A stretch of DNA of 46,281 nt. Origin: a virus. Position 1 is the first letter of the stretch, and each line of letters starts with the position of its first letter. The notes under the pieces were generated by a model. That model was not told the DNA's origin. It did not search any database and was given only the letters and a program-made list of their open reading frames with translations. Below, one piece after another: positions 40,879 through 41,783 of this stretch. The DNA lies in IMG/VR virus record IMGVR_UViG_3300017971_000396. One strand, written 5' to 3'. Both the position numbers and the translations under genes were made by a program.

Positions 40879-40940
40879 CTCATAATTATCCAAATTGAAC
40901 AAGATATTTAAGTTTACATTGATAAACATTAGGAATAATC
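40879..40940. repeat. 62-bp direct repeat (copy 1) duplicating the PARP 3' end and gene junction
   Basis: Near-identical to 41722-41783. On the - strand it encodes ...IIPNVYQCKLKYLVQFG* out of frame with the upstream gene. Confidence 0.8.
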
Positions 40941-41387
40941 CTAGTAGTTATCGTTATCTAGTGAGATATAAGAATCTGGACCAAAGATAAATTGAATTAA
41001 TGTATCTCTTGAATCAAACATTTCTAAATTATCGTCACCGATACTTTGGTGATCAATATATGCGTAACAGCCTTCTTCATCAATACCATTACCAAGCCAC
41101 CATGTAATTTCTTTAACGCCATAATATTCTTTAATAACATCTTCAAGCATTTCAATATATCCAGGAGAAGATAAATATTTTGCTTGAAGATATGAGAAGA
41201 TAATTTTTGACCCAGTATCATAAATTTCTTTCGGACCCCAACCAAACTCAGTTTCACCAAATGTATTATCAATGAAGATTTCATAATCATATACACCTAA
41301 AACTGGTAAATTTAATTGGCATGATTTACATACATAAATAAACGAACTACTAGAACTATTACTTATAAATCCACTTCTACTTTTCAT
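40941..41387 (-). CDS. small protein of the Ser-rich N-terminal-tag family (member 5)
   Basis: Begins MKSRSGFISNSSSSSFIYVC. Lies between the PARP and MVP genes. Confidence 0.6.
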   Translation of the reverse strand: MKSRSGFISNSSSSSFIYVCKSCQLNLPVLGVYDYEIFIDNTFGETEFGWGPKEIYDTGSKIIFSYLQAKYLSSPGYIEMLEDVIKEYYGVKEITWWLGNGIDEEGCYAYIDHQSIGDDNLEMFDSRDTLIQFIFGPDSYISLDNDNY

Positions 41388-41725
41388 TTTGACTCCAAAA
41401 TTTCATTTAATTCTCGTTTTGTTTTATTGAGAAGTTTATTTTTCAGATCATAAAATAATGTTCTATACACAGATGATGGATTTTTGGTTTCATCAATATC
41501 ATCACAAGCTAATAAATTATCTTTTTGAAATAACTTGATAGTTATTCTATTATTATATGTTGTATCTCGTACAAGATGTAATTGATATTGCTTATTAAGA
41601 AATAATATGAAGCATGTTACAGTATGTGTACTTTCTTGAAGAATCCAATCTAAGTCTTTACTTTGAATTTGAAAACAAAAATTCTTAAGATTAATATCTT
41701 TTGCAAAACTTTCGATAAATTTCAT
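41384..41725 (-). CDS. hypothetical protein
   Basis: 113-aa ORF. Its ATG lies within the junction repeat right after the PARP stop. Confidence 0.5.
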   Translation of the reverse strand: MKFIESFAKDINLKNFCFQIQSKDLDWILQESTHTVTCFILFLNKQYQLHLVRDTTYNNRITIKLFQKDNLLACDDIDETKNPSSVYRTLFYDLKNKLLNKTKRELNEILESK

Positions 41726-41783
41726 AATTTATCCAAATTGAACAAGATATTTAAGTTTGCATTGATAAACATTAGGAACAATC
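41722..41783. repeat. 62-bp direct repeat (copy 2), spanning the 3' end of the PARP gene
   Basis: tcataatttatccaaattgaacaagatatttaagtttgcattgataaacattaggaacaatc. Confidence 0.8.

Follow-up and report, generated by a model that had tools for sequence, protein, structure and literature searches.

Mosaic junctions at gene boundaries, and the associated idea of a 'linker sequence', are part of the modular view of phage evolution (Susskind and Botstein; Hendrix and Hatfull). Two further bodies of work bear on genes enclosed by short direct repeats: the shuffling of genes by elements termed PeSLs (promoter-early stem-loops) in T4-type phages (Arbiol et al. 2010, PMC2839356; Comeau et al. 2014, PMC4122927), and repeat-mediated deletion in T4, for which small patches of homology (<50 bp) are said to suffice (Singer et al. 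1982, cited in PMC2839356). Here we analyze a stretch of viral DNA of 46,281 nucleotides (nt; IMG/VR record IMGVR_UViG_3300017971_000396, hereafter 'the window'), in which the 3' end of a PARP gene, together with the start of the gene behind it, occurs twice as a direct repeat bracketing two open reading frames (ORFs), ORF113 and ORF148. The arrangement is probably a recombination scar within a replaceable slot, to which ORF113 and ORF148 were a stacked addition.

All genes of the repeat region lie on the minus strand. A repeat finder returned a pair of 55-nt direct repeats 843 nt apart (40886-40940 and 41729-41783; 53 of 55 bases identical), which BLAST and MAFFT lengthened across the stop codon, the spacer and the sequence ATGA. 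The repeat of the PARP 3' end and gene junction noted in a preliminary description of this DNA is thus real, and does bracket the genes at 41384-41725 and 40941-41387. The full pair consists of copy 1 (40880-40940, 61 nt; its start had been placed one position too low, at 40879) and copy 2 (41722-41783, 62 nt). Aligned over 62 columns, the copies are identical at 59 (95.2%), in perfect blocks of 4, 19, 30 and 6 nt. The three differing columns, previously counted as three mismatches, are two substitutions (one synonymous, TGC/TGT, and one V/I) and a single-base gap in the spacer, which reads TAA-TT-ATG in copy 1 and TAA-ATT-ATG in copy 2. The 30-mer common to both copies is present at exactly two places in the window, and none of 100 dinucleotide-preserving shuffles had it twice; a search with this 30-mer allowing up to three mismatches found the same two copies in the 46-kb window, and no further PARP-like sequence.

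Copy 2 (minus strand) is the functional original, comprising PARP's final 17 sense codons (IVPNVYQCKLKYLVQFG, the C-terminal peptide as first reported), the stop codon TAA, an ATT spacer, and ATGA, the start of ORF113. The PARP gene itself (41729-43042, minus strand; 437 amino acids (aa)) encodes WGR, PARP regulatory and PARP catalytic domains (Pfam), has more than 2,200 homologues, and shows synteny with two loci discussed below (L010 and L022). The copy 2 peptide corresponds to the conserved final strand after the glutamate of the NNEMIV motif, a residue that we take to be catalytic from what is known of PARP1; 'IV' stands at the V/I site in 110 of the 117 homologues in which the motif was found.

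Copy 1 (minus strand) directly follows the TAG stop codon of ORF148 and, in the PARP-equivalent frame, reads IIPNVYQCKLKYLVQFG up to its stop. That frame has no start codon (no ATG), is closed by a stop 24 codons upstream, and does not coincide with the frame of ORF148; copy 1 is therefore a dead and non-coding remnant of the 3' end of PARP, and hence points to a recombination scar, with one copy inside the intact end of a conserved gene and the other truncated and non-coding. A frameshifted fusion of ORF148 to the relic was rejected, as the +1 frame would need tRNA-Tyr to slip from TAC to ACT, and all 32 full-length homologues of ORF148 end at DNDN[HY], with no extension.

The relic retains one role. 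Its 3' end (TTTGGATAA-TT-ATG), which closes with TAA, a TT spacer and ATGA, provides a GGA Shine-Dalgarno-like motif and the ATG for ORF57 (40710-40883, minus strand), a gene for a small single-pass membrane protein of 57 aa that overlaps the following gene, ORF110, by 26 nt. Most genes of this genome have such a ribosome-binding pattern, with GGA at about -9. ORF57 has a strongly hydrophobic segment at residues 12-30 (Kyte-Doolittle value 2.55 in a 19-residue window) and matches PHROGs at E 0.002. Both the start context and the membrane character of the ORF had been described correctly; the coordinates (40709-40882) and the label 'unannotated' had not, as ORF57 is a called gene on public contigs.

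The 3' part of the repeat is thus the translation-initiation region of two different genes, and the same junction precedes a third gene in the relative L022, as might be expected if the 55-62-nt sequence were kept twice as a functional element (a terminator, promoter, RNA structure or att site). The preliminary description had named this as part of what would count against a scar, and the checks for promoters, terminators, RNA folds and Rfam families were all negative: the repeat contains neither a promoter nor a terminator consensus, its RNA folds no better than shuffled sequence (z -0.5 to -1.5) with predicted structures that differ between the copies, and Rfam gives no match. Moreover, only two copies exist in 46 kb, no integrase, transposase or nuclease domain is encoded in or next to the cassette, and the upstream 45 nt of the repeat are needed only as PARP coding sequence. 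We regard a functional element as very unlikely.

Since the source is a metagenome assembly, a chimeric or mis-joined contig might also account for the duplicated end and the cassette. The window belongs to a phage contig of ~207 kb (ENA ERZ27256798, k141_1546401), whose gene order recurs in a second assembly made from a different sample. Between the window, L005 and L006, three assemblies of separate samples, there is not a single-nucleotide polymorphism (SNP) in 40400-43100, both repeat copies included, and 5-7 positions differ elsewhere; an identical structure in assemblies that are otherwise distinguishable is not an assembly artefact. In addition, the two copies can be told apart by their three differences, and contig names of the form k141_... 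suggest that assembly ended at a k-mer of 141, which exceeds the 62 nt of the repeat, so that no mis-join would be expected. The probability of an artefact is negligible. Queried by exact sequence, PARP, ORF148 and ORF57 led in each case to one set of five contigs, with an unchanged size distribution; the cassette-minus variants of this phage that had been proposed as a check were not found among them, as all five contigs with the identical PARP encode ORF148 and ORF57.

The nature of the scar emerges from comparison with one relative, the sole one of intermediate distance that was found. A degenerate back-translation of the PARP C-terminus had a sole match among JGI metagenome contigs, the 1,376-bp contig Ga0233415_10084591 (L022), whose positions 1-218 are 81.7% identical at the nucleotide level to window positions 41938-41721 and include the end of PARP and the identical junction TTTGGATAAATTATGAA. 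Homology to the window stops at 41721, just past the ATGA, and restarts at L022 position 733 (window 40738), 3 nt before the ATG of ORF110 (40403-40735, minus strand; phrog_27815), whose product is 61% identical in amino acid sequence to that of L022 736-1065. The L022 interval between these edges (214-734) holds three consecutive small hydrophobic ORFs (65, 54 and 66 aa), unrelated to the genes in the same position in the window; L022 is without ORF113, ORF148 and the relic, and keeps homologues of ORF110 and of a major-vault-protein-like (MVP) gene downstream. Because L022 has other fillers between the same junction and ORF110, the interval between PARP, its conserved left flank, and ORF110, its conserved right flank, is to judge from sequence a replaceable slot, at whose edges homology breaks off sharply where genes start. 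Its left edge is the end of PARP with the start codon of the next gene, and its right edge the start of ORF110.

The first of the L022 fillers, the 65-aa ORF directly after the junction, is also a membrane ORF, with its hydrophobic segment at residues 12-30, as in ORF57. Three different genes (ORF113, ORF57 and L022 ORF65) therefore stand behind one junction, and the post-PARP position seems usually to be taken by small membrane proteins. The gene junction had initially been called conserved, which holds for this nearest relative, where the same TTTGGATAAATTATGAA leads into a different gene, but not for more distant PARP-bearing phages. Likewise, the suggestion to look for relatives without the cassette leads to L022, which has both flanks without the segment or the duplicate, yet L022 is not simply the window minus its cassette, having three unrelated small ORFs in the slot instead.

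The same contig places the duplication in time. Copies 1 and 2 share seven differences from L022 and are separated from each other by only two substitutions, so that the duplication arose within this lineage, between sequences at most ~4% apart. The event long predates the diversity of 0.05% that separates the sampled genotypes.

More distant relatives show that the duplicate is not a general feature of PARP genes. Full-length PARP homologues go from 100% to 59% identity with none between; the locus at 59% (L010), on a contig with a Gp23-type capsid gene, keeps the order of PARP and the genes for a 215-aa protein, a 336-aa protein and a PD-(D/E)XK protein, and has six unrelated genes right after PARP. 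Genes downstream of PARP are also unrelated in L011, which has no relic, and in four IMG/VR relatives of 40-47% identity (L001-L004), and the PARP-tail duplicate is absent in L001, L002, L003, L010 and L011. Searches for closer relatives added little. Against INPHARED, megablast was empty, and the one blastn match, to two Stenotrophomonas jumbo phages, was weak and internal to PARP. An exact 30-mer of the repeat had no hit in JGI metagenome contigs, nor a 23-mer in IMG/VR; degenerate PARP-tail scans of IMG/VR and GTDB genomes, an MVP-based scan of IMG/VR and a scan of IMG/VR with ORF113 were all empty, and a scan of IMG/VR with ORF110 found three distant loci (30-33% identity), none adjoining PARP. 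The label 'T4-like' that was attached to this phage has indirect support, from a weak Pfam match to a gp44-type clamp-loader lid on the same contig and from Gp23 or other T4-type genes on the contigs of distant relatives.

These loci also bear on the possibility that copy 1 is what remains of a second PARP gene, an ancestor of the order PARP-ORF113-ORF148-PARP'-ORF57 having lost all of PARP' except its last 55 nt. Copy 1 does keep a complete, in-phase 17-codon tail with its stop and start junction, and both substitutions are compatible with coding sequence. However, two PARP genes were present in no phage locus examined, the window has no other PARP-like sequence (30-mer, up to three mismatches), and the end of the deletion would have to coincide exactly with the stop codon of ORF148. 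We consider this history highly improbable.

The two bracketed genes have little in common. ORF113 (41384-41725, minus strand; its stop overlaps the ORF148 start in ATGA) is an ORFan. Scanned in full with HMMER, 1.84 billion representative sequences yielded only the protein itself and one marginal short match (E 2.5e-4), and Pfam, PHROGs, NCBIfam and PADLOC had no match. Its G+C content of 0.237 is the lowest of the 70 window ORFs of at least 100 aa, 2.2 standard deviations below the window mean, and it may be a very young or fast-evolving gene. ORF148 (40941-41387, minus strand) belongs to a family with the common N-terminus MKxRxGFxSNSSSSSF and has 32 full-length homologues (39-53% identity); the four homologue-bearing contigs that were inspected each present a different neighbourhood, without PARP or ORF113. 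Its confident AlphaFold (AF2) model (pLDDT 84, pTM 0.83) has no structural relative in PDB or BFVD and no match to a nuclease-like fold. Because ORF148 homologues lie in other contexts and ORF113 is an ORFan, the pair is not a conserved unit, as 'two-gene cassette' might suggest; an ORFan next to a gene with homologues in varied contexts is typical of shuffled accessory genes.

No recombinase, integrase, transposase, nuclease or defence-system domain was found in either protein (Pfam, PHROGs, NCBIfam, PADLOC). Direct repeats around an inserted segment recall the target-site duplications of transposons and attL-attR pairs, and three kinds of mobile element were tried and rejected. For a transposon, ORF113 and ORF148 lack a transposase domain, the repeat finder reported no terminal inverted repeats bounding the cassette, and the 61-nt duplication far exceeds the typical target-site duplication of 2-15 bp. 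For an integrative element, a recombinase domain is absent from the cassette and its neighbours. For a free-standing homing endonuclease, ORF113 and ORF148 contain no HNH, GIY-YIG, LAGLIDADG or similar domain, and the nearest HNH gene lies ~4 kb downstream.

The N-terminus of ORF148 recurs within the window. Five ORFs share a ~20-aa N-terminus, MK[ST]R[STN]GF[VI]SNSSS[SC]SF[IV], with remaining bodies that cannot be aligned: 824-1138 and 5102-5575 on the plus strand, and 23902-24237, 28698-29102 and 40941-41387 on the minus strand. The DNA of this tag is 69-93% identical between copies, and another locus (L013, 3124-5465) has five such ORFs in a row. In the ORF148 family, N10, S11-S13 and S15 of the tag are invariant in 33 sequences, and residues 1-12 are disordered (pLDDT <50, AF2). 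A literature search for 'NSSSSSF' found nothing; the tag might be a signal for targeting, processing or modification, or else a recombination linker within coding sequence.

How ORF113 and ORF148 came to lie between two copies of the PARP end can be reconstructed with less assurance than the scar itself. Homologous recombination, the mechanism initially proposed, explains excision or transfer at the repeat and not the origin of the duplication, for which at least one illegitimate join is needed; the recombination scar in that proposal stands, whereas its mechanism cannot have originated the duplication and excision was not detected. The most economical history, which we put forward tentatively, is a single unequal crossover between two close relatives (at most ~4% diverged at the site), one of the order PARP-ORF113-ORF148 and the other PARP-ORF57-ORF110-MVP. 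In the crossover, the first genome, up to the point immediately behind the stop codon of ORF148, would have been joined to the second from a point 55 nt ahead of the stop codon of PARP. Three outcomes would follow at once: ORF113 and ORF148 would be gained; ORF57 would retain its native initiation region (GGA in the last PARP codon, TAA, spacer and ATG) inside the relic; and the gained genes would now lie between direct repeats of 61 and 62 nt. The relic is then the mark of an ORF57 that once stood directly behind PARP, or that arrived with the PARP tail. All three differences between the copies would be tolerable in a working gene and junction, which fits an origin of copy 1 from a functional allele without proving it. 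We infer the single-crossover route as well as the direction of the event.

Several points weigh against this history, or against the scar as a whole. Neither parent has been seen, be it PARP-ORF113-ORF148-ORF110 alone or PARP-ORF57-ORF110 alone, and protein, JGI and IMG/VR scans found no such parental arrangement in close relatives. The slot comparison depends on one contig of 1,376 bp, and the sequence similarity between ORF57 and L022 ORF65 is marginal (pairwise E 0.04). Two substitutions are too few to separate allelic difference from drift after an intragenomic duplication. An illegitimate join exactly after a stop codon is rare for a random crossover, so that selection or a gene-boundary mechanism must be invoked. 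Finally, 5 of 5 contigs of this phage keep the cassette, and the region is free of SNPs among three genotypes, with no instability observed.

In a history confined to one genome, foreign DNA with ORF113 and ORF148 entered a PARP-ORF57 ancestor through two template switches, or through break repair, that re-copied the last 61 nt of the target, and the copies diverged later by two substitutions and one indel. That L022 has a small membrane ORF directly after PARP at the same junction agrees with such an ancestor, and the atypically low G+C content of ORF113 with its insertion; at the V/I site, it is copy 1 that departs from the outgroups, while copy 2 keeps the common state. At the TGC/TGT site, in contrast, copy 1 matches L022, so that the changes do not all lie on the relic. 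The history also calls for two illegitimate joins instead of one, each falling exactly on a gene border (ATGA and TAG), and the divergence of the copies (2/55) is ~70 times that of the genotypes (7 in 14,553), which is possible but implies long persistence of a repeat-flanked state. We judge insertion within one genome to be unlikely.

Integration of the Campbell type would instead start from a circle carrying one repeat with ORF113 and ORF148, made by recombination between flanking repeats as in PeSL mini-circles, which entered the PARP 3' end of a PARP-ORF57 genome by a single homologous crossover. The predicted product is this very structure, an insert flanked on either side by a direct repeat of hybrid origin; the formation of mini-circles through repeats of ~100 bp has been demonstrated in T4-type phages (PMC2839356), and the junction is conserved in L022. 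The donor, however, must already have been flanked by the repeat, so that transfer would be explained and origin not; no second context with ORF113 and ORF148 exists in ~15 billion proteins (ORF113 matches itself only), and on the contigs inspected the ORF148 homologues never adjoin PARP or ORF113. Such an integration is decidedly unlikely. Template switches, mini-circle integration and a deleted PARP copy are, compared with an unequal crossover, less economical or explain transfer only.

Whatever its origin, the present structure leads to a prediction. Because PeSL-flanked ORFans behave in this way, and because short homology suffices in T4-type phages (PMC2839356), it is plausible that the phage recombination system could act on the repeats, with their 30-nt perfect block, to excise the cassette or set it free in circular form; the structure predicts loss of an 843-bp unit, or a circle of that size. 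A stronger version, in which the PARP 3' end with its ribosome-binding site and start codon is a coding 'linker' at which homologous recombination repeatedly swaps alternative gene sets within this phage clade, and ORF113-ORF148 an active, excisable mini-circle cassette, seems to us rather doubtful. If true, it would be a promoter-less, translation-signal-based counterpart of PeSL cassettes.

The surroundings of the slot deserve brief description. Upstream of PARP (43083-43221, minus strand), a terminator-like hairpin (43221-43196) is followed by promoter-like sites at 43182-43153 and 43112-43083; PARP is therefore probably the first gene of its transcription unit, which would run through the repeat region. 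A motif of ~32 nt, CTATAC..TTTTCATGTTATATTATA on the coding strand (family D5), is repeated at 43082-43113, 43152-43183 and 30818-30849, and inverted at 164-216 and 4061-4098. It lies upstream of gene blocks in both orientations, with two copies 70 nt apart before PARP, and as it overlaps sigma-70-like hexamers, it is probably the phage's own promoter motif.

Beyond ORF110, the MVP-like gene (37886-40351, minus strand; 821 aa) encodes Pfam MVP_shoulder and Vault_3 domains, and its N-terminus is 81% identical to that in L022. It lies ~1.4 kb downstream of a full WGR/regulatory/catalytic PARP, in a phage, and the pairing is kept in L022. The combination recalls the association of the eukaryotic vault with PARP4.

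Elsewhere in the window, a tandem duplication with a 204-nt period (13467-13584 and 13671-13788; 95-97% identical) occupies a gene-free region. Each unit has a promoter-like site, TGACAA-N17-TATAAT, followed by AACGAGAG-rich sequence, with a hairpin at ~13777-13818; Rfam has no match at the gathering threshold, and the units could encode duplicated small RNAs. A 265-nt direct repeat (14854-15118 and 17182-17446; 74% identity) is common to the ORFs at 13859-15184 and 16244-17527, which therefore look like paralogues, and which have no Pfam or PHROG match. Two auxiliary metabolic genes on the minus strand belong to the GDP-mannose 4,6-dehydratase/epimerase family (21340-22320) and the IMP dehydrogenase/GMP reductase family (22711-23901).

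The interest of the locus lies in what a single genome has kept. As old and new junction are both present, the event can be reconstructed where mosaicism is usually inferred across genomes. The end of a conserved gene bears the start signal of the gene that follows and marks the edge of a swappable slot, and ORF57 is an example of how a small gene can retain its expression signal though new genes have been inserted before it. For annotation, the relic should be called neither a gene nor a regulatory element, and ORF57 should be called.

Set against the described systems, the locus resembles PeSL-flanked cassettes in having short direct repeats (~60-100 bp) around ORFan or accessory genes where the genome of a large lytic phage is hypervariable, in a repeat that carries the expression signal of the next gene, and in the predicted deletion or mini-circle formation by the phage recombination system. 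Yet PeSLs are intergenic, running from the stop codon upstream to the ATG downstream, whereas here this is true of copy 1 only, copy 2 lying almost wholly within PARP. PeSLs contain a sigma-70-type early promoter, and none is present on the minus strand within 40880-40940 or 41722-41783; they contain a stem-loop, where the repeat has no terminator-like site and no significant fold; and they are composite, occurring in many copies in hyperplastic regions, while the present repeat has two copies and is mostly PARP coding sequence with a ribosome-binding site and a start codon. An ORFan and an accessory gene are flanked here, both absent in L022, without presence/absence variation within the species (five contigs). 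The repeat fails the testable defining features and is not a PeSL. As for deletion between direct repeats in T4, a repeat of 61/62 nt with a 30-nt perfect block is near the length said to suffice, although the deletion product was not found in the available assemblies.

The closest correspondence is with the mosaic junctions of modular phage evolution: homology to L022 ends sharply at gene starts (41721 and 40738), different genes follow one junction, and a gene fragment has been left behind. The difference is one of vantage point, as the classical cases were inferred across genomes, whereas here the scar lies within one genome, with old and new junction side by side. The locus is thus a further example of the familiar phage mosaic scar, and no new mechanism.

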